Part shown: in pieces, positions 477-15,183 of the stretch
Position numbering within the stretch: position 1 is the stretch's first letter
Layout of the letters: every line of letters begins with the position of its first letter
Source: Fibrobacter succinogenes subsp. succinogenes S85
GTDB taxonomy: Bacteria > Fibrobacterota > Fibrobacteria > Fibrobacterales > Fibrobacteraceae
Reading direction: 5' to 3'
Assembly (NCBI RefSeq): GCF_000146505.1
Contig: NC_017448.1
Coordinates: forward strand, 1,470,001 to 1,502,000
DNA: 32,000 nucleotides
The notes under the pieces: model-generated
Seen by the model: only the letters and a program-made list of their open reading frames with translations
Told to the model about the DNA's origin: nothing
Database searches by the model: none
Translations under genes and position numbers: made by a program

Positions 477-487
477 AAAAGAAATTG

Positions 488-520
488 CCCCGGCTCAAAC
501 TGAGTCGGGGTTTCTTGTTT
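488..520. terminator. Rho-independent terminator between convergent genes
   Basis: CCCCGGCTCA-aac-TGAGTCGGGG (488-510) forms a 10-bp stem with one G-U on the plus-strand RNA, followed by TTTCTTGTTT. On the minus strand the same stem has one A/C mismatch and is followed by CAATTTCTTTT. Confidence 0.7.
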
Positions 521-529
521 ATGCAATGT

Positions 530-2281
530 TCACGTCACAAAAATAAAACTCATCAACATTACAGAACATACTGCGAATATTGAAACCGTAATAAATCCCA
601 ATACTTTCCATTTGAGAGAATATTCTTCCTGATACACACCAAGCCCGACATACGGGAGAAAGCTCAACAGGACCGGCAATATATAGCGAAAATCAGCACT
701 ACAGGCGTAGGAATATTTATATCGCAAAAAACCTAAAGCCACAAAGAAAAGAATTCCTTGAATGAATAAAACCCAATGATAAATATTCATTCTGGTTTTC
801 CACCAGCCTCGAATTGCGAAAACAATTAGTCCCAGCAACGACAAACCAATCAACGACGCCAATGTTCGGCCCACAGCCGTATCTACAAGTTTCCATTCGC
901 CAAATAACGAGGATTTAAAAGCGTAATTAAAAAAATATTCTCGTCCTTGTCCATCGACCCATCCATTGGTATAAGGTTCCGTCAAGAACGATTTCATATC
1001 AAAATACAGGAAATTCTTCGCCTCATTTTCAACCTTTAGGCTTGAATGCAAACTATTTATGTTTGCAACCAGTTCACCATTGCTGAAAATCTTAATTACA
1101 ACAAGGCTCACAAAAACAAGAGCCAGTAAAATCCACCCAGCAATTTCTGTTTTGGTCGGCCGATGCAATTGATTTGTTTTTACGAATCCGAAAACAGCAA
1201 ATAGCATTACAAGTCCCAAGGTGACATAGCCCGTAGATTTTGTCCACACCGCAAGAGCCGCACACACAACAGCAGCAACAAGATGCTTTCCGTTTCCGTT
1301 CTTGATATAGTTAAAACCCGCCACCACACATAAAACGTGCAAAGTATAAAAAAGTTGGTCATTTCCGATTCTAGGTGCAACTAAAAGCAACAAGGGCCAT
1401 ACGGTCCACAGAACAGAAGCAATTCCTAAAGGAACACCTGAAACAAATTCCTTCAACAAAAATAGGCCACAGACAAGCAAAATAATTGAAAGAACCAAAC
1501 TGAATGCTTGTGCACCTGAACAAGAATTATAGTCAATCAATCCACTCACCATAAAAGACGGTATTACACTAGCATAATAAACAGGCGGATGGTAACAGCT
1601 CCAGCAATCTTTCGCAGAAGGAATAGAATGATTGTCTATTATATATTGTATATAAGCTAAGTGTCCCTCTACATCCATCGAAAATTGGTTGTAAGGCATC
1701 GCATAGAACATTGCAAAACGCAGGAGAACACCTGCAAGAATACATGCTATCAGAAATGTATTTAGTTTCAGTCGTTTCTCAACCAATATCACGATTATCC
1801 CAACAAGCAGGGCTATCATAAATTTCAGCAGAAACAGCAAAATACTATCGACTTTAGGGAAAACATTTATCCCTGCGATTCCGCCTTTATTCATCAAGAG
1901 AATTTCATAACTGGTTCTATTCCCCACACGATGTGGAGAAGTAACCGAGTCTGGAATCCAAAATCCTTTATTAAAATTACATTTATCCGAATAGCCGCTC
2001 AATGAAAATGCAAAGCCGTTAACCGTCAATGATTCGGCGCAATCATCAGGAATGATGTTTAAATCATAGGGAATATTCAATGGATTAGAAATAGAAAAAC
2101 GAACATTAAACCATTCACCGGCATCCATATTTTGTGAGATGGGTAATGTCGTTTGTTTTTCAGCATTTCCATGCCGCAGAACAACATTTTCCACCCGGAT
2201 TTGACCATAGTGGAGAATGCTGAAGCATATTAAAATGCCAATGGCACAATAGAATTCTATTGACTTAAAAATCTTTTTCAT
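530..2281 (-). CDS. Polytopic membrane protein, GT-C-fold glycosyltransferase-like (PMT_2/ArnT-like), with an extra N-terminal periplasmic beta-rich domain
   Basis: 583 aa. It has an N-terminal anchor, a ~120-aa soluble segment and then ~13 hydrophobic helices. The first large loop carries [13 protein letters not shown] and CYHPPVYY, which resemble the acidic loop motif and hPPL motif of lipid-carrier-dependent GT-C enzymes. The ATG overlaps the upstream stop (ATGA, 2278-2281). Confidence 0.6.
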
Positions 2282-3912
2282 AGTTTTTTACCTTCGTGGT
2301 ATTCCTCTTCGCTGTTCACGCTCCAAAGCGCAGTCTTGTCGCTGCAACCTTCGCGGATGCACTTGACAACTTCCATTGCGGCGAGCATGCTGTGGTCCAT
2401 GTTGTTATACTTGTGCATGCCATTGCGGCCCATTAGGAACAAATTATCAATCGGGTCCACATATTCACGGACTTTGTCGAACTCGCCATAAGTACCGAAG
2501 TAGGCAGGGTAGGCCTTCTTGATGTGGAACACCACGGAATCGCGAACAGACTCGGGCCTTGCCACGTCAATCTTGTCGAGTTCCGCAATCGCGAACTTGA
2601 TGAAGTCCGCATCGGGCATGTTCCACATATCATCGCCTTCGGTGGCAAAGTATTCAAGGCCTATCCACACTTTTTCAGGGTCGGCGACAAGATACGGGCT
2701 CCAGTTGTTGAATATCTGAATACGGCCAAGTTTCACGTCGGATTCCTGCACGTAAATCCAGTTGTCGGCAACGAACTTGAGCTTGCTTTCGGGTGTACCC
2801 GGCTTTGCCGGATTCTTGATTTCAAGTTTGTCCAAAAGGAGGCCCACGGTAATGAAGTCGCGATAGACGAGACCGTCAGAGACGCGGCGCACTTCGGAGG
2901 GCACGGGATTCTTTTCGTTATCCATTGCGGCGACGAGTTCTTTCACCGGCATCGTCGAGAGGAAGTAATCGCACGGGACCGTTTCCGTATAGCGTCCGTA
3001 ATCCACGACGACGCTTTCGACACATTTACCAGTTCCGTCGCGATTCACGCCAACCACGCGGGCGTTCATAACAATCTTGCCGCCCATTTCCTGCACCTTC
3101 TCGGCAACCGTTTCCCAAAGCTGGCCTGGACCGAATTTCGGGTAAAGGAACTGTCCGATAAGGCTAGTTTCCGTGTCCTTCTGGCGGATGTCTGCTCCGT
3201 TGGCGCCGTCAGCAGCACCTTCCGCATTCTTCTTGCCGGCAAAAATCTGCTTGACAGCATGCACCACGGTTTTCGTAATCGAGAGGCCCTTGATGCGCTG
3301 GCCGCCCCAGTCGGGGCTAATCTTGCTGCACGGTACGCCCCACACCTTTTCGGTGTAATCGCGGAAGAACGTGCGGTAGAGTTCCACGCCGAAGCGGTTA
3401 ATCATAAAATCTTCGAGACTATTTTCTTTGCGGGCAGGCATCAACTGCACCTTGATGTAGCTAAGGCCAATTTTCATCATGCGCCAAAGCCCAAGGTTGC
3501 GAATCGTATCGCCGTTCAAGCTGATGGGGTAATTGAACAGCTTGCGCAAAAAGAGAATTCGCGAAAGGCGGCTGCGGCAAAGCATCACGTAGTCCGTCTT
3601 CTCCGGATCAGGACCGCCTTCCGTCAGCGGAACAGTGCGGCCAATCGCGATGTCGTCCTTGCTCGCGACACCCTGGAGCGGTAAAATTCCCTGCCACCAA
3701 TCCATTACCGTATCGCTCTTGCTAAAAAAGCGGTGACCGCCAATATCCATGCGGTTGCCGTTGTAACGCGCCGTACGCGAGATACCGCCAATGACATCTT
3801 CCGCTTCAAAAATCACAGGTTTAACATCTGTTGTACGCAAAAGTTCCAACGCCGCGGTCAAGCCCGCAGGACCAGCACCAGCAATTACAGCAATCTGACT
3901 ATTTTTTTTCAT
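2278..3912 (-). CDS. NAD(P)/FAD-dependent oxidoreductase (amine-oxidase / UDP-galactopyranose-mutase-like fold)
   Basis: 544 aa. The N-terminal dinucleotide fingerprint is [19 protein letters not shown]...[19 protein letters not shown] resembles the GGH.IF motif of UGM-type flavoenzymes. There are ATGA overlaps with both neighbours. Confidence 0.65.
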
Positions 3913-4313
3913 TCATTAAACAAAATCAGCTTGCGAGCGCAAAAATTCCACATCAAAACAACTACAGCAGCTATCATTTTTGAATACAATTCATGCAAAC
4001 TAAAGAAACCAACCATCAACAACATCAAAAGTTCATTAAGTCCCACACCCATTAACCCAACCAAAGCAAACACAGCAAATTCTGCCAATCTGCACTTTTC
4101 TAGTCGACGTTTACTACTACGGAAAACCCAACTTATGCTCAAAGCATAATTCAAGCACAGCCCGGCAACTAGCCCCATAAGATTTGCAAGCAAATATTGC
4201 CATCCAAGACCGTAAAGGCAAAGAGAAAACAAGCCAAAATCAATTACAAAGGCAAATCCGCCCACTAGTATATAACGTGCTAGTTGGGCTAGCACCGTAC
4301 AAAATGCAGACAT
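3909..4313 (-). CDS. GtrA family membrane protein (polyprenyl-phosphate-sugar translocation family)
   Basis: 134 aa with four hydrophobic helices. [18 protein letters not shown]...[24 protein letters not shown] is the typical GtrA-like signature. Confidence 0.75.
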
Positions 4314-4336
4314 TACTCGGAATTTCTGTTAACTAA

Positions 4337-5554
4337 CTACAAAAGCAATGACTCTCTAAACCACTCCCCATAGGGGTTCGCCTTCGGATTAGGGTTGTAG
4401 TTTCCATCTTCACATTTCCAGAATTCGCTTTCATAAGTTTTGTGTGTAACTTGCGGTTCCGTTGACATTATTTCATTTTTGCAATCTTCAATTAGGAAGA
4501 ATACAGAAAAATAATCATCAGTAGAGACACATTCCCCACTAGGCTTCACTTTCGTGAATTCCAGTTCGCCATCGGCAACATGACTCAAAACACTTCCAGT
4601 AAGCAGACCGCCGCCATCCACAAACGTTATAAAGTATTGACAGTTCCCATCTTTTTCTATCAAACGATTTTTCATTATTTTCGCCGTCATCGGGAAACAC
4701 TGCGGTATATCGTTTCCTTCAATTTTAACAAAATGCGATTTTAGCTCCATCGTGTTTACATTCAACGTCAATTCCGTAAAATCTATACAATTCATACTTG
4801 GCAATCCGTTGTATGCAATTACATGTTCGTCAAAAGAAAGCTGTTCAACACTTGAAGCATACTGCAAGACATAATTTTCGAGTGTTTGATCATATTTGAT
4901 TGTTATTGCCGTATCGCTAGGAGATATAGTTGACAAAGGCTCTCGCCCGCCAGCACTAGAAGAGCTTGAACTTTCACCCCCTTTTGACGAAGAAGACGGT
5001 GTTACCCCTCTACCCGTTGAATTTTGGGCATTCCTTGACATTTCAAAACACCGATTTGTAGCGATAGCGCTAAAATAAGTTATCAAGATATTCGCAGAAT
5101 CAGATTCTATTGCCTTTACTCGACAAGCGGCATCAAATGCTCCTTCCTTACAACCTTCACTAAGGCTAAAGAATTCGCTATTAGACTTATTATCGCAATT
5201 AGTCTTGAACTCGGCAAAAGCAGAATCACAGGATTGTTCGAGTCCTTCCGCTTTCAAGGTTGTCACCGCAACAGAACCGGAAATTTGTATGGTCATCGCT
5301 ATGGATGCACTATCCGCGGTACACTCTGCACGAGCGCCCGAACCATCATCCAAAACGGCCAATCTGCCTCCGTCTATTCTGGCATATGCAGCCTCGTTCA
5401 AATCCAAGCCATAATTATACCAATCGTTCACCTGTTTCTCTAAAAGGGCATTCTGGTCTTCGATTGTACCGCCAGATACCTTGTTCGATTCAGAACAAGA
5501 TTCCAGCAGCAAAGTAAGCGAACAAAGCAATAGTAATCCGAAATCAAATTTCAT
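4337..5554 (-). CDS. Cys-rich lipoprotein with a Ser-rich linker
   Basis: The ORF track starts at a TTG (5560). The ATG at 5554 gives MKFDFGLLLLCSLTLLLESC, a signal peptide with a lipobox-like Cys. The central linker is TPSSSSKGGESSSSSSAGG. The N-terminal segment SEGCKEGAFDAACRVKA...NRCFEM loosely matches NEGCGTSLEMSCVAKV...GECETF of the neighbouring lipoprotein. Confidence 0.6.
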   Translation of the reverse strand: MKFDFGLLLLCSLTLLLESCSESNKVSGGTIEDQNALLEKQVNDWYNYGLDLNEAAYARIDGGRLAVLDDGSGARAECTADSASIAMTIQISGSVAVTTLKAEGLEQSCDSAFAEFKTNCDNKSNSEFFSLSEGCKEGAFDAACRVKAIESDSANILITYFSAIATNRCFEMSRNAQNSTGRGVTPSSSSKGGESSSSSSAGGREPLSTISPSDTAITIKYDQTLENYVLQYASSVEQLSFDEHVIAYNGLPSMNCIDFTELTLNVNTMELKSHFVKIEGNDIPQCFPMTAKIMKNRLIEKDGNCQYFITFVDGGGLLTGSVLSHVADGELEFTKVKPSGECVSTDDYFSVFFLIEDCKNEIMSTEPQVTHKTYESEFWKCEDGNYNPNPKANPYGEWFRESLLL

Positions 5555-5566
5555 CGTCAAGAAGCC

Positions 5567-7279
5567 CTAAAAATCATTCCACAAAGTATAACCCAATATC
5601 ACATTGTCAGTTCCAGAATTAGCATAACGGTATATTTCAATTGTCAAATCAGCATTTGAAGTCGTTGTAAAATCTACAACTTCAAACGGATTCTGAGCGC
5701 TAATCGAAGATTCTAGCAACGATCCATTTTGGTAAACTCGCAAATCAATATCCTGCGCTATTGAATTATTCGATATTACATAGTCTCCGCTAGTAAGCCA
5801 AGCTATAGCAATTCGATAATGCGTGTTAGATGCGATGTCATTTTCCGTAAACGTTATTTTATTGTTGTTATCAAAGCAGCAAGAGTTCGATCCACTCCAA
5901 TAACGATACCTATGATTCCACGCTATGCTTGAATATCTAATAATACCCCTTGCCGCTTCTGAATTGTTATCCAAATCATGACTGGAAGCATTTCCTATGG
6001 GTATTTTTTCACTAGACACGATCCAAGCCTTTACAAGTTCGGGATGGCGTTTGAAAAAACCATATTGGCTTAAAAGATCAGCAAAAATGCCCGCTGTGTA
6101 AGGAGTAGACGCACTCGTACCGTTAAAATATCCATTCCACACATCTATATTAATATTTGGGAAATAAAAGTCCGTATAATTTGCCATTTCGGGTTTTTGA
6201 TTACCTATATTCGAATTTTTCCATTTAGAGTAAGAAACATAATTATTGTTAGAAGGATTTACCGCCCCAACAGCAATTGTGTTAAGAGCCAATCCAGGTG
6301 ATCCAACAAAATCCGTAGTATCACTCGATGATATATTTCCCGCAGCATAGAATGAAATCAGTCTATTATTGTAGATATAGTTGTCCACATCTTTATCGTT
6401 TCCCGAATACACACCATTAGACGGAAGATAATGCCAAGAATGCGAACTTATTTCAATAGTCGGATTATGAGCATCCATATTTAGACTACTCAAAAAACCA
6501 GTTCCAAGACCATCATAAGCATATAAAGTCGCCAACGGTGCTGTGGTACTTATGGTTTTCGCAACTGCTGTAGGATGCATTCGAACGCCATTAGAACACG
6601 TATTTAACAGCACATAATACCCTGAATTATAACCTACAGGGTCAGAGCAGCCCTCATCATTGAAGAAGACCCCAATGCCTTGTCCCTTATATCCGTTAGC
6701 ATGAGCATGAGATGTTATCTCAGAATAGCCAAATATTGTGGTATAAAGAGTATAACTGTCAAGAATTGGTTTTCTTACTATATCAATATATACTGGTTCA
6801 GGTCCATTCAACAATGTTTCAATTTCAGATGCCGTGAGAGAAGCTTGATATTGTTGTACCGGGACAAATTTCTCCCGTCTATTTTCAACATTTCTAAAAT
6901 AATCATCTTCAGAAATTCTATTTCCGTCCAACCAATACTTCTTTTCTCCATTTCCATTTACTTCAAACCGACCAGAAATCGGTTGAATCTCTCGGCTCGC
7001 TTGTATTGGAGATATATGTACATCTAAAGTTCTTTGCGGACGCATTATATAATAGGCTTCATTTTGGCCACTATTAGAAGATTTCTTTATTCTACCTAAA
7101 ATATCTCGAGCAGAACTCTTTTTGATTATGGTGTCAGAGACCTGTTTTTGTTCGTTTAAAAAGTCCAAAACATCATTTGACGCTTTACTTTTTAACTCCA
7201 AAGGCGGCAAATATGTCGGTTTTGCAAACAGGGTGGAGGCCAGCAGCAATATTGCAAGAGCAATCGTTTTGGAATTCAT
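5567..7279 (-). CDS. Secreted S8 (subtilisin-like) serine peptidase
   Basis: 570 aa with signal peptide MNSKTIALAILLLASTLFA. All four subtilase motifs are in order: GIGVFFNDEG (Asp), MHPTAVA (His), FYAAGN (oxyanion Asn) and FNGTSASTPYTAG (Ser). An AGGAGG Shine-Dalgarno (SD) sequence lies 7 nt upstream of the ATG. Confidence 0.8.
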   Translation of the reverse strand: MNSKTIALAILLLASTLFAKPTYLPPLELKSKASNDVLDFLNEQKQVSDTIIKKSSARDILGRIKKSSNSGQNEAYYIMRPQRTLDVHISPIQASREIQPISGRFEVNGNGEKKYWLDGNRISEDDYFRNVENRREKFVPVQQYQASLTASEIETLLNGPEPVYIDIVRKPILDSYTLYTTIFGYSEITSHAHANGYKGQGIGVFFNDEGCSDPVGYNSGYYVLLNTCSNGVRMHPTAVAKTISTTAPLATLYAYDGLGTGFLSSLNMDAHNPTIEISSHSWHYLPSNGVYSGNDKDVDNYIYNNRLISFYAAGNISSSDTTDFVGSPGLALNTIAVGAVNPSNNNYVSYSKWKNSNIGNQKPEMANYTDFYFPNINIDVWNGYFNGTSASTPYTAGIFADLLSQYGFFKRHPELVKAWIVSSEKIPIGNASSHDLDNNSEAARGIIRYSSIAWNHRYRYWSGSNSCCFDNNNKITFTENDIASNTHYRIAIAWLTSGDYVISNNSIAQDIDLRVYQNGSLLESSISAQNPFEVVDFTTTSNADLTIEIYRYANSGTDNVILGYTLWNDF

Positions 7280-7291
7280 ATTTCATCCTCC

Positions 7292-8755
7292 TTATTCGTT
7301 CCAAGTTGTATCGCAAGCCATTCCGTTTTCCGTATCGCCTTGGCATTGTACAGTAGGCAGGGGTTCCGCTTCGGGGAGATTCGCAATAAACGTTTCGCAT
7401 TCGCCTTTGAATGTATTGGCGATAGCCCTGAGTTCAGTCTGACTGGAGACCTTGGCTACACAGGACATTTCGAGGCTAGTGCCACAACCTTCATTGTAAA
7501 TCCTATAAACGCCGCCTTTCTCGTTGCATTCGGCAACATAAGCTATGCTGTCGGCCACACAAAGTTCCGTCTTTCCAGCAAAGGTTTTATAGTGCAAATC
7601 CTGTATGTAAAGCGACCCTTCGTTTTCCTTGAGGAGAATGGTTGCGTCATCGTATTGATCAAGAATAGTGCTATAGCCAGAAACCTTTTCCTTTTTAGAC
7701 TTGTAAAAAGATATTCCATCTTCTTGATTGTACAGATTTACCCAACAGCTTCCGTTGGACTTTATCTCGTTGTACACAACTTCTTTTTCGGTCGTAAAAG
7801 TAAACAAGACCGGAGAGAGTGCAAGCGTCGGCTCGTCGGTAGGCACGACCTCATCCAGAATGATATCGTCAGAAACAACAGCCTTACTGCGGCTTCCAAA
7901 GGAATCCAGCATACTGTTCATGAACGCAATGTCAGCATCGGACAAGGTTTTCGCGACATTATTGGCAGAAACATTTTCGTCATTTTTCTGCGTTGTGTCG
8001 CAGACCATTCCATTTTCCGTATCGCCTTGGCAATGCACGGTAGGCAATTCTTCCGCTTCGGGGAGATTCGCAATAAACGTTTCGCATTCGCCTTTGAATG
8101 TATTGGCGATAGCCCTGAGTTCAGTCTGACTGGAGACCTTGGCTACACAGGACATTTCGAGGCTAGTGCCACAACCTTCATTATAAATCCTGTAAATGCC
8201 GCCTTTCTCGCTGCATTCGGCAACATAAGCTATGCTGTCGGATACGCAAAGTTCCGTCTTTCCAGCAAAGGTTTTATAGTGCAAATCCTGCACATAAAGC
8301 GATCCTTCGTTTTCCTTGAGGAGAATGGTCGCATCATCGTATTGATCGAGAATGGTGTTATAGCCAGGAACCTTTTCCTTTTTAGACTTGTAAAAGGAAA
8401 TACCTTTTTCTTCGTCATACAGATTTACCCAACAGCTTCCGTTGGACTTTATCTCGTTGTACACAACTTCTTTTTCGGTCGTAAAAGTAAACAAGACCGG
8501 AGAGAGTGTGAGAGTCGGTTCATCTGTCGGAGTCACATCGTTAGCACCATCAGAAGCGACAGCTTGGCTGTTACTCCCAAAGGAATCCAGCATGCCGTTC
8601 ATGAACGCAATATCCGCATCGGATAAAGACTTTTCTGCAGTAACAGGCGCTTCTGTTGAAGGTTCTGTTCCAACGGTGGATACTGCTCCCTTATCTTCGG
8701 AGCAGGCTGCTAAAGCGATAATAGCAGCAGCGGAAATAATGATTTTTTTATTCAT
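7292..8755 (-). CDS. Lipoprotein built from two near-identical ~229-aa Cys-containing modules
   Basis: The preferred start is ATG 8755 (MNKKIIISAAAIIALAAC, lipobox), with AGGAG 7 nt upstream. The longer ORF-track start (8788) lies inside the upstream gene. The two modules run from LSDADIAFMN... to ...CQGDTENGM.CDTT. Confidence 0.7.
   Translation of the reverse strand: MNKKIIISAAAIIALAACSEDKGAVSTVGTEPSTEAPVTAEKSLSDADIAFMNGMLDSFGSNSQAVASDGANDVTPTDEPTLTLSPVLFTFTTEKEVVYNEIKSNGSCWVNLYDEEKGISFYKSKKEKVPGYNTILDQYDDATILLKENEGSLYVQDLHYKTFAGKTELCVSDSIAYVAECSEKGGIYRIYNEGCGTSLEMSCVAKVSSQTELRAIANTFKGECETFIANLPEAEELPTVHCQGDTENGMVCDTTQKNDENVSANNVAKTLSDADIAFMNSMLDSFGSRSKAVVSDDIILDEVVPTDEPTLALSPVLFTFTTEKEVVYNEIKSNGSCWVNLYNQEDGISFYKSKKEKVSGYSTILDQYDDATILLKENEGSLYIQDLHYKTFAGKTELCVADSIAYVAECNEKGGVYRIYNEGCGTSLEMSCVAKVSSQTELRAIANTFKGECETFIANLPEAEPLPTVQCQGDTENGMACDTTWNE
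7295..8647 (-). repeat. Intragenic tandem direct duplication, unit about 687 bp
   Basis: For example CCATTCCGTTTTCCGTATCGCCTTGGCA at ~7319 and CCATTCCATTTTCCGTATCGCCTTGGCA at ~8006 are offset by 687 bp. The protein units are roughly 90 percent identical by eye. Confidence 0.9.
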
Positions 8756-9608
8756 GGTTATGCTCCTTATTTTTAAATGAGGTTTCATTGTTCTGAATTT
8801 TTTCTGTGAGCGGGAACATCTGCATATTCAATCGGTACACTCGGTTTCCGCCCTTTTTGGCTGTCGCAATGGATATGATTCTTTTACGGCAAGCGTCCAG
8901 TTCCTTCAAAATTTCGGCATAGTCTTCATCGTCTATTCCCATGGTGATGCCGGTAAAATTCCGTTCATCTATGGGGTACTTTTCAACAGCCTCTCTTGCG
9001 AAATCAGCCATTTCCTTATGCATTTCACGAACGAGCACCGGCATGGCGGCAACGGACATCTGGAGAGACCTATCCACTTGCTCGTACACATCATCCGCAG
9101 TCTTCTTCAAGAACTTCGCTCGGGTCAAGAATGCCAACGCATCGCGGACCTCCTCGGCCGAGAAAGCCCCTCCACACGCCTTGGCCACTTTCAGAGGCTT
9201 CGCTCCGGGCATCATGGGAGCAAGTTCGCGCAGCACAGGATATTTCCACGATTCGTAAAAAGAGACTGATTCCCCTTCTAAAACACGGACCTTGTGAGCA
9301 CTGGCAATTTCCTTCATTTCTGTATAGGCAGCCTTCTTGTCTGCATCACTCTTTGCCTGTCCAAATTTCACAAGTTGTCTAAAATATTCTCTTTCAGCAC
9401 CCACAAGATCCATCGCGTCAGCGGCATGTTCAATTCCATTCTTCGACAAGCCGCTCTTGCCTTCACACACAATCTTCATATAATTGGGTGAAGTAAACCC
9501 TCCCTTCTTTGTAAAATCACGCCAGGAGAAAGCGGATGTTCGCTTTTTCCACTGGTAGTAATCGTTCATAAAGGAACGGTAGTCTTCATATTCAATTACG
9601 GATCTCAT
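8748..9608 (-). CDS. TIGR02147 / DUF4423 family protein (putative HTH-type regulator)
   Basis: 286 aa. The N-terminus YEDYRSFMNDYYQWKKRTSAFSWRDFTKKGGFTSPNYMKIVCEGKSGLS...EREYFRQLVKF matches my recollection of the family pattern (Y.DYR.FL.DYY..KK....FS.R.FA...G..S..YLK.VI.GKRNLS...E..YF..LV.F). Its stop overlaps the next gene's start by 8 nt. Confidence 0.7.
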   Translation of the reverse strand: MRSVIEYEDYRSFMNDYYQWKKRTSAFSWRDFTKKGGFTSPNYMKIVCEGKSGLSKNGIEHAADAMDLVGAEREYFRQLVKFGQAKSDADKKAAYTEMKEIASAHKVRVLEGESVSFYESWKYPVLRELAPMMPGAKPLKVAKACGGAFSAEEVRDALAFLTRAKFLKKTADDVYEQVDRSLQMSVAAMPVLVREMHKEMADFAREAVEKYPIDERNFTGITMGIDDEDYAEILKELDACRKRIISIATAKKGGNRVYRLNMQMFPLTEKIQNNETSFKNKEHNHE

Positions 9609-9653
9609 TATACCTTAAATATATTTTCCAATCCGCTTGCCACGATCAGTTTT

Positions 9654-9690
9654 TCTATACAAAATTTGCGAATTTTTATCAATTTGTATA
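9654..9690 (-). promoter_or_regulatory. Candidate sigma-70-type promoter overlapped by an inverted repeat (possible operator) for the 9608-530 operon
   Basis: On the minus strand, TTGATA (9682-9677), a 17-nt spacer and TATAGA (9659-9654). The imperfect inverted repeat TATACAAAATT (9656-9666) / AATTTGTATA (9681-9690) spans the spacer. There are also direct repeats AAAATTTGCG (9661-9670) and TAATTTTGCG (9689-9698). Confidence 0.35.
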
Positions 9691-9774
9691 ATTTTGCGTA
9701 TAATAAAAGAATTTTAAAGTTTTACTATACGGTAAAATGCATATTTTAGCATTTTTAGCAAGCGAAAAATCCCC

Positions 9775-9807
9775 TAAAAAAAGAACCGCAGCTACAACAC
9801 TGCGGTT
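9775..9807 (-). terminator. Rho-independent terminator of the 217-aa gene
   Basis: On the minus strand, AACCGCAG-tgttgtag-CTGCGGTT followed by CTTTTTTTAGGGG. The stem is 8 bp and perfect. Confidence 0.7.
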
Positions 9808-9862
9808 TTCATTGCATAAAACGGAACCGATTCTACAAAATCGGAACAAGTCAGAAAAAACT

Positions 9863-10516
9863 CTACGAATTTTTATACAAGTCGCTCAAATCTAGAGCCA
9901 TAAACGTAGCGCCGTCGTCATATACAGGACGAACATGCCGTTTTATATTCTCAGTTTCAGAAGAGTTCAGTTCAAATTCAGAAAATCCATAATTGTCTTG
10001 ATAGTACTTTACCAACCTTTTATCAATGGCGTGTATAATCAAGTAATTTACAGCCACATATTCGTTTATGGCTTTTACGATATCAAGGATAAAACCATAG
10101 AACATGGCTGCCGTAATTTCTTCCTTGCAATTTGTGCTATTCGAGAAAGCACCATTGCGAGCAAAGTTCACTAGTTCTATAGCCGAATCAGTATATTCTA
10201 CCGAACTTTCGCGATCAGTTTCTTCATCAAATTGAATATCCAAATCGCTTTCTTCTGGAAGTTGCTCGAAACGAGGCAGGATTGCGGTCTTCAGCGTAAA
10301 ATAGCCGCACATTTCATGCAGACGGTCAAAAACTATATAGGTCGTTGACACGTGGTCCCGAGTTTCTATAATTGCATCGCGCGTTAAATACTTTTCTAGA
10401 CCCTTGCCCGCTTCGCATGTAGCCTCAAATGTACTAAGCAAGCGTTTGCACTCCTCCGAGTCACAAACCTTCTCACAGCTAAACGAGCCATCAGGAAGAA
10501 CGTAGGGAAAATTCAT
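9863..10516 (-). CDS. Acidic hypothetical protein with GNAT-toxin-like (TacT/KacT-type) motif order
   Basis: 217 aa. The motifs occur in this order: FSC...LEKYLTRDA...TTYIVFD...CGYFTLKTAIL...LPEE...AIELVNFARN...VAVNYLIIHAIDKRLVKYYQDNYGFSEF...TFMALDL. This parallels F.CG..LD.FL..A...TYV....GYYTLSA.SI...LP...LGRLAVD...V.A.D..A..FY...GF...LFLPM of GNAT toxins. A canonical Q/RxxGxG/A motif is not evident, and an acidic insertion (ESDLDIQFDEETDRESSVEY) is present. Confidence 0.5.
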   Translation of the reverse strand: MNFPYVLPDGSFSCEKVCDSEECKRLLSTFEATCEAGKGLEKYLTRDAIIETRDHVSTTYIVFDRLHEMCGYFTLKTAILPRFEQLPEESDLDIQFDEETDRESSVEYTDSAIELVNFARNGAFSNSTNCKEEITAAMFYGFILDIVKAINEYVAVNYLIIHAIDKRLVKYYQDNYGFSEFELNSSETENIKRHVRPVYDDGATFMALDLSDLYKNS

Positions 10517-10650
10517 TTGGCTTGTGTTGCGTGTTTACGCTTAAAATCAAGATAACGAGCAACATTAACGGGAGCAATTTTTCCCGTCTGTTTTGCGGCA
10601 TGCAACTTTCGCAATGCCATAACAAGCTGCTGCTTTTTTGCGTTCACCAT
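10513..10650 (-). CDS. Small basic protein (45 aa), translationally coupled to the 217-aa gene and absent from the ORF track
   Basis: The product is MVNAKKQQLVMALRKLHAAKQTGKIAPVNVARYLDFKRKHATQAK (8 K, 3 R, 1 D). An AGAGG SD lies 7 nt upstream of the ATG at 10650. The TGA stop overlaps the downstream ATG (ATGA at 10513-10516). A strand-helix-helix (RHH-like) arrangement is possible. Confidence 0.5.
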   Translation of the reverse strand: MVNAKKQQLVMALRKLHAAKQTGKIAPVNVARYLDFKRKHATQAK

Positions 10651-10667
10651 AATAAGCCTCTATAAGT

Positions 10668-10696
10668 AATATAACTAATTATCATCTTCAAGTCAA
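10668..10696 (-). promoter_or_regulatory. Canonical sigma-70-type promoter of the 45-aa/217-aa cassette
   Basis: On the minus strand, TTGACT (10696-10691), exactly 17 nt, then TATATT (10673-10668). The -10 box ends 17 nt upstream of the ATG at 10650. Confidence 0.55.
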
Positions 10697-10756
10697 CAAT
10701 CCAATATGATTTTTCCAGAGGTTTTCCATAACATTTCGCTTTTTCAGACATTTTTG

Positions 10757-10990
10757 CAGTAAGCCAGGCGTTGCGGGCTGGCGTTTGAAGCCCGCAGTGG
10801 GGGTAGCGTAAGACCTGGCCGGGGCGGGCTTTGGTCAGTATTCCCGAAGGGAATGACTATATGGGCGGGGCCGGGGCTGGAGCGAGGGGGATACTTCCCC
10901 CTTCATACTAAGCCTTACACTTGGCGTCTACGACGCCAGTTTGCATCGCCTCGGTCATGCCCAAGCGAACTTGGGCGCGACACTCGGCTC
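10757..10990. other. GC-rich cluster of perfect short hairpins (candidate structured RNA or REP-like element array)
   Basis: Stems: GCGGGCT/AGCCCGC (10774-10796), ATTCCC-gaa-GGGAAT (10841-10855), GGGGGA-tact-TCCCCC (10887-10902), TGGCGTC-tac-GACGCCA (10922-10938) and GCCCAAG-cgaa-CTTGGGC (10959-10976; the loop is UUCG on the minus strand). The plus strand carries many G3-G5 runs. The region lies directly after the carB stop, with no T-tract terminator. Confidence 0.4.
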
Positions 10991-10991
10991 G

Positions 10992-13900
10992 CTACACTTC
11001 TTCAATGCTTGCGTGGTACTCTTGCAGGCTCTTCACGGCACCATGTCCGTTCCTTGCAGCGGCGATTCCCTTCACGGTGTTGTAGGCACCGGCGAGCGTG
11101 GTGATGTAAGGCACCTTGTACTTGATGGCGGCCTTACGGATAGCGCTTTCGTCCTTGATGGCGTCGCGCTTTGCCCACGGCGTGTTGATGATGAGGTTCA
11201 CCTGCTTGTTCAGGATGATATCGAGAACGTTCGGGCGGCCTTCAGCAATCTTGTTCACCACTTCGCACTTGACACCGGCGGCTTCGTAGAACTTGGCGGT
11301 ACCTTCGGTAGCGTAAATCTTGAAGCCGAGCTTCTGGAATTCCTTACCGATTTCAATCGCCTGTTCGGAGAGGTTCACCTTGTCAGAAAGGCTGATGAGC
11401 ACAGCGCCTTCGGACGGGAGGAAGGAACCTGCAGCTTCCTGGCTCTTGTAGTAAGCGAGGGCGTAGTCGTCGGAAAGGCCGAGGACTTCACCAGTGGAGC
11501 GCATTTCGGGGCCGAGAACCGGGTCCACCTTCGGGAACTTGTCGAACGGGAACACAGCTTCCTTGGCACCGTGGTGGTTGAACTTCTTGTCCTTGAGCTT
11601 GAGGTCTTCGAGCTTGGCACCGAGCATCAAGCGGGTCGCGAGGCGAGCCATCTGCGTGTTACAGACCTTGGAGACCAGAGGCACCGTGCGGGAGGCACGC
11701 GGGTTGGCTTCGAGGACGAACACCTTGCCGTCTTCGATGGCGTACTGCATATTCATGAGGCCGCAAACGTGGAGGGCTTCAGCAATCTTCCTCGTGTAAT
11801 CCTTGATGGTTGCCAAGTTTTCCTTGGTGATGGTCACCGGCGGGATGATGCAGGCGGAGTCACCGGAGTGGACACCGGCAAGTTCGACGTGTTCCATCAC
11901 GGACGGGATGTAAACGTGTTCGCCGTCAGAGAGGGCGTCGGCTTCGCATTCGAGAGCGTTGTGGAGGAAGCGGTCGATGAGGAGCGGACGGTCCGGGGTC
12001 ACGCCGACAGCCTTGGCAACGTATTCGCGGAGCATGGCTTCGTCGTAGATGACTTCCATGCCACGGCCACCAAGCACGAAACTCGGGCGGATCATCACCG
12101 GGTAGCCACCGATCTGCTTGACGCAAGCGAGGGCTTCGTCGATGTTCGTAGCCATGCCACTTTCCGGCATCGGGATGCCGAGCTGGTCCATCATCTTGCG
12201 GAACAGGTCGCGGTCTTCGGCAATGTCGATGGAGTCGATGCTCGTACCGAGAATCTTGACACCTTCGTCGCTCAAAGCGCGGGCGATGTTCAGCGGAGTC
12301 TGGCCACCGAACTGCACAATCACGCCAGCCGGCTTTTCCTTGTGGTAAATCTGGAGAACGTCTTCGAGGCTGACCGGTTCGAAGTACAGCTTGTCGGAAG
12401 TATCGTAGTCGGTAGAAACCGTTTCAGGGTTGCAGTTCACCATGATGGTTTCGTAACCCATTTCGCGGAGAGCCATGGCAGCATGGCAGCAGCAGTAGTC
12501 GAATTCGATACCCTGGCCGATTCTGTTCGGGCCACCGCCGAGAATCATGATCTTCTTCGGGTTGTTGGAAGCGGTAGATTCGTCCTTGCAGTTGTAGGTG
12601 CTGTAGTAGTAGTACTGGTCCTTCACGCCGCTCACCGGCACTGCGCACCAGCCTTCGACCACGCCGAGTTCGGTACGCTTCTTGCGCACGTCCTTTTCGC
12701 GGATGCCAAGAATCTTTGCGATGTACTTGTCGCTGAAGCCGTCCTTCTTGGCCTTGATGAGGAGTTCGTCAGCAGGCAGGCGACCCGGAGTCTTGAGCAT
12801 TTCTTCTTCGAGTTCCACGAGTTCGCGCATCTGCTGCACGAAGTAAGCCTTCTCGTAGGTGGCAGCGAAGATTTCTTCGTCGGTAGCGCCCTTACGGATA
12901 GCTTCGTACATCTGGAAGTGACGTTCGGAAGAAGCGGTCTTCATCATTTCGAGGAGCTCTTCCTTGCTCTTCTTGTTGAAGTCCTTCGCAAAGCCGAGGC
13001 CGGAGCGACCGTTTTCGAGGCCGCGGATAGCCTTCTGGAGGGTTTCCTTGTAGGTCTTGCCGATAGCCATGACTTCGCCCACGGCCTTCATCTGGGTGCC
13101 GAGGCAGTCATCGACGCCGCGGAACTTTTCGAATGCCCAGCGTGCGAACTTGAGCACCACGTAGTCACCGCTCGGGGTGTACTTTTCGAGGCTTCCGTCG
13201 CGCCAGTACGGAATCTGGTCGAGGGTGAGGCCTGCGGCGAGCTTTGCTGAAATGAGGGCGATCGGGAAGCCGGTAGCCTTGGAAGCAAGTGCAGAAGAGC
13301 GGCTGGTACGCGGGTTGATTTCGATAATCACCACGCGGCCGGTCTTCGGGTCGTGAGCGAACTGGACGTTGGTACCGCCAATCACACCGATAGATTCCAC
13401 AATCTTGAAGGCCTTTTCCTTCAGTTCTTCTTCGAGCTTCTTGTCGATGGTGAGGAATGGGGCGGCACAGAAGGAGTCGCCGGTATGCACGCCCACCGGG
13501 TCGATGTTTTCGATGAAGCAGATGGCGATCATCTGGTTCTTGGAATCGCGCACGACTTCGACTTCGAGTTCTTCCCAACCGAGAATGGATTCTTCGATGA
13601 GGCACTGGTGCGTCATGGAGAGTTCAAGACCGTTAGAGCAAATGGTGCGGAGTTCTTCCACGTTGTAGCAGAAACCGCCGCCTGCACCGCCCATGGTGTA
13701 TGCCGGGCGAACCACCACCGGGTAGCCGATTTCGGCCACGATCTTTTCGGCTTCTTCCACAGAGTGGCAAATGCCGGAGCGCGGGGTGTCGATGCCGAGC
13801 TTCTGCATGGTTTCCTTGAAGATTTCACGGTCTTCGCCGCGTTCGATAGCGTCGAGGTTCACACCGATGACCTTCACGCCGTACTTGTCCAGCACGCCAG

Positions 13901-14210
13901 CCTTGCTCAAAGCAGAAGCGAGGTTCAAGCCGGTCTGACCGCCCAAGTTCGGGAGGAGAGCCTGCGGGCGTTCCTTTTCGATAATCTGGGTAAGGCGAGC
14001 AACGTTCAGCGGTTCGATGTAGGTGGCATCGGCCATGACCGGGTCGGTCATGATGGTAGCCGGGTTAGAGTTCACGAGCACAATCTTGTAACCCTGTTCG
14101 CGCAGGGCCTTGCAAGCCTGGGTGCCGGAATAGTCGAATTCGCAAGCCTGACCGATCACGATCGGGCCAGAACCGATGATAAGGACTTTGTCGATGCCTT
14201 CAATCTTCAT
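10992..14210 (-). CDS. carB: Carbamoyl-phosphate synthase large subunit
   Basis: 1072 aa. It has duplicated ATP-grasp halves (KVLIIGSGPIVIGQACEFDYSGTQA... and KIMILGGGPNRIGQGIEFDYCCCHA...), an oligomerisation region and an MGS-like C-terminal domain. A GGAGA SD precedes the ATG. No carA is adjacent. Confidence 0.97.
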   Translation of the reverse strand: MKIEGIDKVLIIGSGPIVIGQACEFDYSGTQACKALREQGYKIVLVNSNPATIMTDPVMADATYIEPLNVARLTQIIEKERPQALLPNLGGQTGLNLASALSKAGVLDKYGVKVIGVNLDAIERGEDREIFKETMQKLGIDTPRSGICHSVEEAEKIVAEIGYPVVVRPAYTMGGAGGGFCYNVEELRTICSNGLELSMTHQCLIEESILGWEELEVEVVRDSKNQMIAICFIENIDPVGVHTGDSFCAAPFLTIDKKLEEELKEKAFKIVESIGVIGGTNVQFAHDPKTGRVVIIEINPRTSRSSALASKATGFPIALISAKLAAGLTLDQIPYWRDGSLEKYTPSGDYVVLKFARWAFEKFRGVDDCLGTQMKAVGEVMAIGKTYKETLQKAIRGLENGRSGLGFAKDFNKKSKEELLEMMKTASSERHFQMYEAIRKGATDEEIFAATYEKAYFVQQMRELVELEEEMLKTPGRLPADELLIKAKKDGFSDKYIAKILGIREKDVRKKRTELGVVEGWCAVPVSGVKDQYYYYSTYNCKDESTASNNPKKIMILGGGPNRIGQGIEFDYCCCHAAMALREMGYETIMVNCNPETVSTDYDTSDKLYFEPVSLEDVLQIYHKEKPAGVIVQFGGQTPLNIARALSDEGVKILGTSIDSIDIAEDRDLFRKMMDQLGIPMPESGMATNIDEALACVKQIGGYPVMIRPSFVLGGRGMEVIYDEAMLREYVAKAVGVTPDRPLLIDRFLHNALECEADALSDGEHVYIPSVMEHVELAGVHSGDSACIIPPVTITKENLATIKDYTRKIAEALHVCGLMNMQYAIEDGKVFVLEANPRASRTVPLVSKVCNTQMARLATRLMLGAKLEDLKLKDKKFNHHGAKEAVFPFDKFPKVDPVLGPEMRSTGEVLGLSDDYALAYYKSQEAAGSFLPSEGAVLISLSDKVNLSEQAIEIGKEFQKLGFKIYATEGTAKFYEAAGVKCEVVNKIAEGRPNVLDIILNKQVNLIINTPWAKRDAIKDESAIRKAAIKYKVPYITTLAGAYNTVKGIAAARNGHGAVKSLQEYHASIEEV

Positions 14211-14239
14211 TTTGTTTATCTCCGTTGACTAATTATTTA

Positions 14240-14386
14240 TTAAAACTCGTATTTATTGTTTAAAAAAAGAGCTGAACCAAATGGCTCAGCATCTTTAAAA
14301 ACAACATTGGAAATAGAAATAGTAGCGAACGGCGCGACATGCATAATGTCGCAGTTGCGCTTAGCGTTTTTGAGCATTCCGTTCAT
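14240..14386 (-). CDS. Candidate leader peptide ORF (48 aa) in the carB leader
   Basis: The ATG at 14386 is preceded by AGGAAAgtg. The ORF MNGMLKNAKRNCDIMHVAPFATISISNVVFKDAEPFGSALFLNNKYEF reads through both leader hairpins and the terminator, and stops 27 nt before the carB ATG. There is no family recognition, so this may be non-coding. Confidence 0.25.
   Translation of the reverse strand: MNGMLKNAKRNCDIMHVAPFATISISNVVFKDAEPFGSALFLNNKYEF
14262..14290 (-). terminator. Intrinsic terminator 52 nt upstream of the carB start (attenuator candidate and/or terminator of the upstream lipoprotein gene)
   Basis: On the minus strand, GCTGAGCC-attt-GGTTCAGC followed by TCTTTTTTTAAAC. The stem is 8 bp with one G-U. 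On the plus strand that position is an A/C mismatch, which indicates minus-strand function. Confidence 0.75.
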
Positions 14387-14421
14387 CACTTTCCTATTTC
14401 GCAAAGACTTAAACTTGTGCA

Positions 14422-14450
14422 AATATAGAATAAGTGATAGATCATTTCAA
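14422..14450 (-). promoter_or_regulatory. Sigma-70-type promoter that would start a roughly 205-nt carB leader transcript
   Basis: On the minus strand, TTGAAA (14450-14445), exactly 17 nt, then TATATT (14427-14422). It sits immediately after the stop codon of the 63-aa lipoprotein gene. Confidence 0.5.
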
Positions 14451-14459
14451 TAGCGGGCG

Positions 14460-14651
14460 CTAAAAATCACTATCAATAGGAACGCTTTCAGTCGGTTCTT
14501 CCTGAGCAGGCAACTCCTGACATTCCGGAAGCTGCGGTTCCTTAAAGCACCTTTCACGAAGGCTTTGAGCATCACTATCACTGGGTGCAGCACAACCAAC
14601 AAGACCAAGCACACTAGCGACTAAAAACAAACCCATAAACTTGCGTTTCAT
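14460..14651 (-). CDS. Small acidic lipoprotein (63 aa)
   Basis: The preferred start is ATG 14651, with an AGAGG SD 5 nt upstream. MKRKFMGLFLVASVLGLVGC is a signal peptide plus lipobox. The mature part has a CFKEPQLPEC pair and an acidic tail. Confidence 0.6.
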   Translation of the reverse strand: MKRKFMGLFLVASVLGLVGCAAPSDSDAQSLRERCFKEPQLPECQELPAQEEPTESVPIDSDF

Positions 14652-14714
14652 AAAGACCTCTAAGTTGTTATCCATCAATATAATAAACTTTTCAATCAAC
14701 AAAAAAAATTCAAT

Positions 14715-14742
14715 CAAAAAAGGGCCGCCCTAAAAGCGACCC
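14715..14742 (-). terminator. Rho-independent terminator of the HU gene
   Basis: On the minus strand, GGGTCGC-ttttagg-GCGGCCC followed by TTTTTTGATTG. Confidence 0.7.
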
Positions 14743-14773
14743 ACCTTTGCAAAAAGCAAATCTAGCTCAGAAA

Positions 14774-15076
14774 TTACTTCTTAGCCGGCTTGTTCTTAGC
14801 AGCGGTTTCCTTGAGAGCTGCACCAGCCTTGAAGCCGACAGTCTTGGAAGCCTTGATCTTGATGGTAGCACCAGTCTGCGGATTGCGGCCAGTACGAGCA
14901 GCGCGGGACTTCACAGTGAAAGTACCGAAACCGATGAGCTGGACGTTGCCGTCCTTCTTGATGCCAGCAGCGATACCGTCGAGAACAGCGTCGATTGCGC
15001 GAGCAGCAGCAGCCTTGGATTCAATGCCAGCTTCCTTGTTAGCGAGCACGGCTTCAATGAGATCTTGTTTGTTCAT
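14774..15076 (-). CDS. hup: HU family DNA-binding protein with a short Lys-rich C-terminal tail
   Basis: 100 aa: MNKQDLIEAV...VQLIGFGTFTVKSRAARTGRNPQTGATIKIKASKTVGFKAGAALKE, then TAAKNKPAKK. An AAGGAG SD is present. Confidence 0.95.
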   Translation of the reverse strand: MNKQDLIEAVLANKEAGIESKAAAARAIDAVLDGIAAGIKKDGNVQLIGFGTFTVKSRAARTGRNPQTGATIKIKASKTVGFKAGAALKETAAKNKPAKK

Positions 15077-15117
15077 TTTATAACTCCTTGAGTCAGATTT
15101 GTGAATTGTTTGGTAAT

Positions 15118-15123
15118 ATTATA
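15118..15123 (-). promoter_or_regulatory. Candidate -10 box (TATAAT) for hup
   Basis: A perfect TATAAT lies on the minus strand ~42 nt upstream of the hup ATG. No convincing -35 element was found. Confidence 0.3.
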
Positions 15124-15183
15124 CTTTTTTTTTCTTAGATAAGAATGGTTTTTAATGAAAAAAGTTTTTAAAACCGCATAAAA

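Follow-up and report, generated by a model that had tools for sequence, protein, structure and literature searches.

A gtrA-flavoenzyme-GT-C gene trio of Fibrobacter succinogenes as a candidate cassette for extracytoplasmic glycosylation

Furanose sugars of bacteria, fungi and parasites are antigenic and often essential, and to our knowledge they are absent from mammals. The routes we know of that add furanoses outside the cytoplasm start from phosphoribosyl pyrophosphate (PRPP) and yield pentofuranoses. Systems of the gtr type, such as GtrA/GtrB/Gtr(type) of Shigella and Salmonella phages, CsbB/GtcA/YfhO, and PgfS/PgfM of S. mutans, combine a GtrA-family protein with a GT-C glycosyltransferase. 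The nearest published concept to the locus described here is the PRPP-based pentofuranose three-component system, which, together with the mycobacterial decaprenyl-phospho-arabinose (DPA) route, involves a PRPP-dependent UbiA-type transferase, a phosphatase, DprE1/E2, a GT-C enzyme and the GtrA protein Rv3789 (PMC11127046). The subject of this report is a trio of genes, gtrA, a flavoprotein gene and a GT-C gene, in Fibrobacter succinogenes subsp. succinogenes S85, whose chromosome is complete (3.84 Mb). The trio lies in a stretch of 32,000 nt (positions 1,470,001 to 1,502,000 of NC_017448.1), hereafter the window, whose own numbering is used below. Our literature search found no description of the PRK07208 family, to which the flavoprotein belongs, or of a GtrA-flavoenzyme-GT-C module.

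The trio and its mutase-like flavoprotein

We read the trio as an accessory, recombining cassette for extracytoplasmic glycosylation with a ring-contracted (furanose) sugar, and give this reading about an even chance of being right. Its parts are the following.

3909-4313, minus strand: gtrA, encoding a GtrA-family small membrane protein of 134 aa
2278-3912, minus strand: flavoprotein gene, encoding a 544-aa member of the PRK07208 family
530-2281, minus strand: gene of the polytopic GT-C protein, 583 aa
1772-2281, minus strand: N-terminal add-on of the GT-C protein (residues 1-170), with a transmembrane (TM) helix at 8-26, a beta-sandwich at 28-146 and a TM helix at 147-170, as predicted by AlphaFold (AF2)
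533-1771, minus strand: GT-C core (residues 171-583), recognized by a fold match and an acidic motif in the first outer loop

An earlier reading of the letters alone (the sequence-only reading) had three open reading frames (ORFs) fused by 4-nt ATGA overlaps. Read directly, both the gtrA/flavoprotein and the flavoprotein/GT-C junctions are such stop-start overlaps, and the coordinates were correct. The flavoenzyme is thus translationally coupled to GtrA here, and the overlaps suggest stoichiometric co-expression of the trio. Chance ORFs are excluded by the length of the frames, the strong family matches and the hundreds of homologues.

The middle gene had been described as encoding an FAD/NAD(P)-fingerprint protein resembling UDP-galactopyranose mutase (UGM), and both parts of this description held. 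GAGPAG at residues 12-17 and the ten-residue motif at 56-65 are present. The protein matched NF005546 (PRK07208.1-2) with 880 bits, a model that NCBIfam labels just "hypothetical protein", and, in Pfam, Amino_oxidase (5e-15) and NAD_binding_8. As a single sequence, its best match in the PDB was the T. cruzi UGM 4dsg (5e-16); a profile of 38 family members found the T. cruzi and A. fumigatus UGMs at 2e-38 and the bacterial UGMs at about 4e-16. The AF2 model had a predicted local distance difference test (pLDDT) score of 89.8. In Foldseek, 4dsh/4dsg were best (E 1e-28, TM-score 0.79), A. fumigatus UGM came next (range 0.72-0.79), and protoporphyrinogen oxidases (PPOs) and phytoene desaturase trailed (E 1e-22 to 1e-19). 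Matches to the PPO, CrtI and HpnE models were limited to the N-terminal dinucleotide-binding stretch, residues about 6-76. The flavoprotein is therefore closest to eukaryote-type UGM, both in sequence and in predicted fold, and the carotenoid and haem families are clearly behind.

We transferred the ligand residues of UGM (Table 3 of PMC3624792, and PMC4192007) through HMMER alignments and counted their conservation in the 38 family members. His63 of the histidine loop corresponds to H60, which was kept in 38/38. The diphosphate ligands of A. fumigatus UGM, R182, Y317, R327, Y419 and Y453 (PMC3624792, PMC4192007), correspond to R206, Y387, R397, Y468 and Y502, and were kept in 36-38/38, as were the FAD contact Arg447 (R496) and the galactopyranose contact Asn457 (N504). 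The uracil-stacking residues Y104 and F158, together with F176, Y179, T180 and W184 of D. radiodurans UGM, map to Y128, F182, F183, Y186, T187 and W191 (33-37/38). The tail GR-G-x-x-Y-N-N-x-DHS is also conserved in the family. Given that the histidine loop, the five diphosphate ligands and the uracil-stacking residues are all kept, a ring-contracting, non-redox role appears likelier than oxidation. The most likely activity, judged from sequence and model, would be UGM-type redox-neutral ring chemistry on a nucleotide sugar, and the sugar need not be galactose. The DprE-type oxidation or epimerisation that had been offered as another option found no support, since this non-redox catalytic set is kept and neither the trio nor the operon gave a family match to a DprE1-type (FAD_binding_4/ALO) oxidase or to a short-chain dehydrogenase/reductase (SDR). 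The AF2 model has the three-domain UGM fold with an FAD Rossmann domain, and a longer, low-confidence loop stands in place of the 200s flap region.

The genome also encodes a canonical Glf (C1:1672529-1673653, 374 aa), which matches E. coli 1I8T at 3e-160 and has the motif YTEKxWG in common with the trio flavoprotein.

The third protein, proposed to be a GT-C enzyme with a beta-rich domain of about 120 aa between TM1 and TM2, was examined in its AlphaFold model (mean pLDDT 83.8). A helix (8-26) is followed by an all-beta domain (28-146), a second helix (147-170) and a helical core, so the predicted domain is where it was expected. In VIA, the core (residues about 170-583) matched ALG12 with a Z of 21.9 (root-mean-square deviation, rmsd, 4.9 Å, 329 aligned), Pmt4 with 21.7 (4.2 Å, 351 aligned), STT3 with about 20 and ArnT with 18.5; AftD, EmbB and PglB were matched as well. 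Foldseek returned GT-C matches at probability 1.0. The predicted structure has the GT-C fold, with VIA Z values up to about 22, and transferase activity would be expected of it. By sequence the protein reached 20.3 bits against PMT_2, whose gathering score is 26.1, and had no Pfam match at the default setting; many homologues at 35-47% identity carry PF13231 (PMT_2) and are named GT39. An acidic motif, D203-x-D/E205-G-H207, lies in the first outer loop, nine residues past core TM1 (175-194). Position 205 was D or E in 23/26 sequences, and D203, H207, R304, D308, K348, E462, R520, D530 and R532 were invariant across all 26. By analogy, the D203 motif may be catalytic.

The topology of TM helix, sandwich and TM helix places the beta-sandwich in the periplasm in the model. 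Invariant in the sandwich are a PDDC motif and one more Cys. The sole structural match of the add-on was the beta domain of a beta-galactosidase (VIA Z 11.1, rmsd 2.8 Å, 112 residues), and the ESM Atlas leads were galactose-binding-like domains with weak scores (0.86 or lower); this one VIA row and the Atlas scores hint weakly at a likeness to galactose-binding domains. The whole module was found in 34/34 Fibrobacteraceae GT-C copies and was seen in Fibrobacterales only. It is absent from the Firmicutes relatives of the GT-C protein, which align only from position 155 or so of the hidden Markov model (HMM).

The gtrA product matched PF04138 at 2e-23 (83 bits) and is by family a putative polyprenyl-phosphate-sugar flippase or membrane anchor. 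The genome encodes just one further GtrA-domain protein (C1:2393488-2394486; L003:1492-2490), which has 332 aa with the GtrA domain at its C-terminus (200-330); its N-terminal 200 residues had no Pfam or NCBIfam match.

Conservation, variation and partners of the trio

Among 46 sampled Fibrobacteraceae genomes, the flavoenzyme was present in 33 (19/30 within the genus) and the trio was absent from 13. The GT-C gene directly followed the flavoenzyme gene in 32/33 genomes, and the order gtrA-flavoenzyme-GT-C was kept in 31/33 loci, which represent five genera and have different flanking genes. Two loci, L093 and L094, have a GtrA-flavoenzyme pair without an adjacent GT-C gene. In one genome (G088, L091:5913-10904) two GT-C paralogues stand in tandem after the flavoenzyme gene, with 31% and 28% identity to the GT-C protein of the window, and GtrA was undetected upstream. 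In another (G074:C77:2564-4082, L124), the flavoenzyme is split into two overlapping frames beside an intact GT-C gene, which is a pseudogene or a sequencing error.

The three proteins diverge to different degrees. Flavoenzyme pairs were 68-98% identical (median 77), GtrA pairs 41-99% (median 53) and GT-C pairs 31-99% (median 39); when pairs with at least 85% flavoenzyme identity were taken, 65 of the 93 had a GT-C identity below 50%. In the GtrA and GT-C trees the window joins one set of loci (support 0.94 and 1.0), and in the flavoenzyme tree it joins another (0.86). Each grouping was rejected on the data of the other protein in approximately unbiased (AU) tests (p 5e-6 and 3e-50), and these p-values are optimistic as the clades were picked once the trees were known. 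The flavoenzyme is thus conserved, the GT-C protein is hypervariable, and the trees are incongruent. Conserved early genes with an exchangeable, variable GT-C are the pattern of serotype-converting gtr operons.

The segment carrying the trio is itself variable between strains. Positions 10,990-16,000 of the window are 90-93% identical in the five closest genomes, and positions 480-10,990 have no syntenic counterpart in these five. A more distant genome, whose core GT2 (glycosyltransferase family 2) genes are just 87-91% identical, has a near-identical island (98% for the GT-C protein, 96% for the 407-aa protein encoded upstream of gtrA, 98% for the DUF4423 protein). A near-identical island in a more distant genome and none in the closest ones indicate a strain-variable segment that has moved between lineages.

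Outside Fibrobacter, 8151 representative clusters match the flavoenzyme family at an E-value of 1e-3 or below; at 1e-30 or below the number is 1179, counted as clusters at 50% identity. Loci of the family come from Acidobacteriota, Bacteroidota, Firmicutes, Actinomycetota, Planctomycetota, Cyanobacteria, Verrucomicrobiota and other phyla. By crude hydropathy counts of TM helices on our own ORF calls, a protein with at least seven TM helices lies within two genes of the flavoenzyme in 38/76 loci and is adjacent in 30. Scanning of 48 polytopic neighbours gave 15 PMT_2, five PMT, two GT87 and one GtrII. With an iterated HMM, GtrA was found in 11/80 loci, mostly directly upstream of the flavoenzyme. 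Proteins related to the Fibrobacter GT-C are encoded next to the flavoenzyme in Lachnospiraceae, Ruminococcus, Oscillospiraceae, Erysipelotrichia, Butyrivibrio and Puia.

Gene fusions join the flavoenzyme to GtrA (P0244, at the flavoenzyme C-terminus), GT4 (P0254), a methyltransferase, polytopic membrane domains and an NDP-sugar epimerase (L055). The fusions to Leloir-type GT4 and to the epimerase point to a nucleotide-sugar substrate. The fused membrane domains P0246, P0258 and P0350 had no homology to the Fibrobacter GT-C profile in hhalign; they belong to other families and were rejected as kin of that protein.

GT2 was the commonest soluble or bitopic neighbour family (19/146 neighbours). 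Seven of these GT2s were tested, and four were PgfS/ArnC-like, one was AglJ-like and two matched other GT2 models. A PgfS/ArnC-like GT2 stands beside the same flavoenzyme in Firmicutes and Bacteroidales, and the system thus resembles a pathway of four parts, with an unlinked GT2 in Fibrobacter. The trio had been described as a gtr-like set without GtrB. This is true of the operon, as the Pfam scan found no GT2 match among the seven tightly packed minus-strand genes at 530-9608. It is not true of the genome, which has 27 GT2 matches; three of these have the GtrB/ArnC architecture (a GT2 domain and two C-terminal TM helices) and match PgfS/ArnC models. The three candidate polyprenyl-phosphate GT2s are given by genome coordinates.

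911024-911935: ArnC/PgfS-like GT2
2989104-2990024: ArnC/PgfS-like GT2
3829059-3829997: ArnC/PgfS-like GT2

A lipid-loading enzyme is thus available in trans, none is dedicated to the trio, and the "missing GtrB" is probably supplied in trans. None of the three could be kept as a partner that tracks the trio, given their distribution across the 46 genomes. At C1:908316-911935 (L085:4316-7936), a core PgfS/ArnC-like GT2 found in 46/46 genomes adjoins an 860-aa protein that matches PMT_2 weakly and ends in an NPCBM sugar-binding domain, and the two are probably a second, housekeeping periplasmic glycosylation pair. At C1:3825966-3829997 (L087:966-4998), a 1025-aa GT-C of the TMEM260-like protein O-mannosyltransferase type lies directly upstream of a core ArnC/AglJ-like GT2, also in 46/46 genomes. 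The remaining GtrB-like GT2 sits in a polysaccharide cluster.

Proposed pathway and competing explanations

The cassette may work in four steps. On the evidence of sequence and model, the flavoenzyme, with reduced FAD as in UGM, would convert a UDP-pyranose to a UDP-furanose. An unlinked polyprenyl-phosphate glycosyltransferase, for which the three ArnC/PgfS-like GT2s are candidates, would place the sugar on undecaprenyl phosphate. GtrA, to judge by its family, would flip the lipid-linked sugar to the periplasmic face or tether the flavoenzyme to the membrane machinery. The GT-C protein, whose fold is that of such enzymes, would then pass the sugar to a surface acceptor, a glycan or a protein. 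The choice of acceptor is probably set by the beta-sandwich and the hypervariable sequence of the GT-C protein, by analogy with the type-specific GT-C of serotype-converting gtr operons.

Several observations weigh against this pathway. The flavoprotein scored 29.6 bits with TIGR00031, far under the cut-off of 303.75 of this curated UGM model, and had no Pfam GLF (PF03275) match. The galactose contact Asn207 of the 200s flap is not conserved, and no Asn is kept at residues 250-254, where the alignment of the mobile loop is uncertain; the fungal uracil contact Gln107 is not conserved either, and bacterial UGMs also lack it. With Asn207 and Gln107 unconserved, the substrate is not demonstrably UDP-Gal. 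Sugar-nucleotide genes (ugd, uxs, epimerases) were not among the 25 commonest families in the 146 neighbours, and a lipid-linked hexofuranose donor was not found in the literature searched. No GtrB-like GT2 co-varies with the trio: two are present in 46/46 genomes, and the third in 21/33 with the trio and 11/13 without it. No dedicated furanose-loading GT2 was thus identified, which also fits the alternative that the mutase acts on a lipid-linked sugar.

In that alternative, which we consider rather doubtful, the flavoenzyme would act at the membrane on an undecaprenyl-phosphate-hexopyranose made by a housekeeping GT2 and hand the furanose form to GtrA, so that the cassette would need no GT2 of its own. 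It would account for the fact that the Fibrobacter cassette never carries a GT2 and that the GtrB-like GT2s of the genome belong to the core and do not vary with the trio. The coupling to GtrA here, and the fusions to GtrA and polytopic domains elsewhere, place the flavoenzyme at the membrane; the pairs at L093 and L094 make GtrA and flavoenzyme look like the core unit; and the phosphate-binding Arg and Tyr residues needed for such chemistry are all kept. However, a lipid substrate would not need the residues that stack on uracil in the two UGM classes, and these are 87-97% conserved; soluble nucleotide sugars are suggested by the fusions to a Leloir GT4 and to an epimerase of NDP-sugars; a PgfS/ArnC-like GT2 lies in the cluster in about 20/76 loci of other phyla; and no enzyme activity of this kind is known.

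A true oxidoreductase role for the flavoenzyme, of the amine-oxidase, PPO or phytoene-desaturase kind, in which it would oxidise the sugar (through a keto intermediate, with epimerisation) or modify the polyprenol carrier, is improbable. The Amino_oxidase match, the second place of PPO and phytoene desaturase after UGM in the fold search, and the annotation of homologues as protoporphyrinogen oxidase in the sources agree with this idea, as does the shorter PPO-like gene beside GtrA and DprE-like genes in Xanthomonas lipopolysaccharide (LPS) loci (PMC2238763). Yet the UGM-specific set (histidine loop, flap Arg, Tyr/Arg diphosphate ligands and tail) is kept, UGM is clearly the top match by sequence and fold, and the PPO, CrtI and HpnE matches do not extend past the N-terminal stretch. 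That the three genes are mere neighbours without a common pathway is hardly credible, given that their order is kept across five genera despite differing flanks, the flavoenzyme recurs beside GT-C and GtrA in many phyla, and gene fusions exist.

A further reading, which we regard as unlikely, concerns the whole family. PRK07208 flavoenzymes may be membrane-recruited mutases that contract a polyprenyl-phosphate-linked sugar, or a UDP-sugar channelled into a lipid pathway. They would then define a widespread, undescribed extracytoplasmic hexofuranose route with a mutase in the operon position of GtrB, and GT-C swaps in Fibrobacter would create surface-glycan types. If the family does feed hexofuranose or another furanose to lipid-linked GT-C pathways, envelope glycobiology would gain a new branch of general reach, from a family that is large (the 1179 clusters) and whose enzyme would have no assigned function in any curated library. 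Fibrobacter is a main rumen fibre degrader. The strain-variable cassette with its hypervariable transferase suggests surface-glycan types in this genus, which could bear on phage sensitivity, cellulose adhesion and strain competition.

Surroundings of the trio and likeness to described systems

The trio stands at one end of the island at 480-10,990, which contains, besides the trio, two lipoprotein genes, an S8 subtilase gene, a DUF4423 gene and a two-gene GNAT cassette. The following features adjoin the trio.

487-511, minus strand: terminator-like hairpin with 11 pairs, 7 of them G-C; a candidate from a consensus scan alone
4337-9608, minus strand: four upstream genes in the same direction, for a DUF4423/TIGR02147 protein, a 498-aa lipoprotein, an S8 subtilase and a 407-aa lipoprotein

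The candidate hairpin (511-487) begins 19 nt past the GT-C stop codon and is followed by a T-rich tail on the minus strand. The upstream genes are separated by gaps of 6-23 nt or overlap, and they are probably co-transcribed, yet they are outside the conserved module: they accompany the trio in the closest island copy (L095) only, and the S8 gene is absent even there. The 407-aa protein (4337-5560), whose gene immediately precedes gtrA, combines a lipoprotein-type signal (…LLLESC) with a Ser-rich linker, and the 498-aa lipoprotein has the lipobox …AALAAC. A PMT-like GT-C could conceivably use either as a protein acceptor, but both occur with the trio in the closest island copy only.

In L095, which lacks the S8 subtilase gene (5567-7279 in the window), the genes of the repeat lipoprotein and the 407-aa lipoprotein are next to each other, in this order. 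This gap in a near-identical island indicates that the subtilase gene was recently inserted or deleted. The gene of the 498-aa lipoprotein (7305-8626) contains a 687-bp tandem duplication whose copies are 94% identical. The L095 version has 269 aa and a single unit instead of two, so the repeat copy number differs between strains. Dispersed short repeats are found at the island edges (432-487, 10760-10815 and 10946-10990) and match related genomes at dozens of sites with 84-97% identity. The edge repeats have no relation to one another; they could be recombination sites.

Compared with eukaryote-type UGM (T. cruzi 4DSG/4DSH, A. fumigatus 3UKA/3UTE), the trio flavoprotein shares the three-domain fold (TM-score 0.72-0.79), GxGxxG, the Gly-Gly-His loop, the flap Arg, the Tyr/Arg diphosphate ligands, the C-terminal GR..Y..N.DHS motif and a size of about 500 aa or more. 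It differs in an identity of about 20%, in scores far under the UGM cut-offs and in the lack of Asn207/Gln107. Unlike its eukaryote-type counterparts, it is bacterial and has inserts at about 76-108 and a disordered stretch at 229-250. Its gene is wired to GtrA and GT-C genes, whereas eukaryote-type UGM is wired to cytosolic or Golgi galactofuranose transferases. With bacterial Glf of the E. coli 1I8T type it has in common the FAD fold, the uridine-binding motif FFxxYTxKxWG and the tail GR.G.YKY..M.H. The trio flavoprotein is 170 aa longer than the Glf of the same genome, and the two are distant paralogues, which probably means that they differ in sugar or role.

The GT-C protein resembles the GT39/GT83 enzymes (PMT, ArnT; PMT_2) in the fold of its TM core (Z 18-22), the acidic motif of the first outer loop and the conserved basic residues. 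It differs from them in having no MIR or C-terminal soluble domains, in its unique N-terminal module of TM helix, beta-sandwich and TM helix, and in a score under the PMT_2 cut-off.

With the DPA and pentofuranose systems, the trio would share the extracytoplasmic addition of a furanose from a polyprenyl-phosphate donor through a GT-C, as predicted here, and it has GtrA and a flavoenzyme in one locus. However, no UbiA-type phosphoribosyltransferase, phosphatase or DprE1/DprE2 homologue is found in or beside the trio. The trio flavoenzyme is of the mutase type and not of the DprE1 type (FAD_binding_4), and its furanose would arise by ring contraction and not from PRPP.

The gtr-type systems named at the outset share with the trio a GtrA-family protein and a GT-C, conserved first two genes, a highly variable and probably acceptor-specific GT-C, and an accessory, recombining locus. 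The trio differs from them in that a UGM-like flavoenzyme occupies the position of GtrB, the GT2 is unlinked in Fibrobacter and linked in some Firmicutes, and the predicted donor is a furanose.

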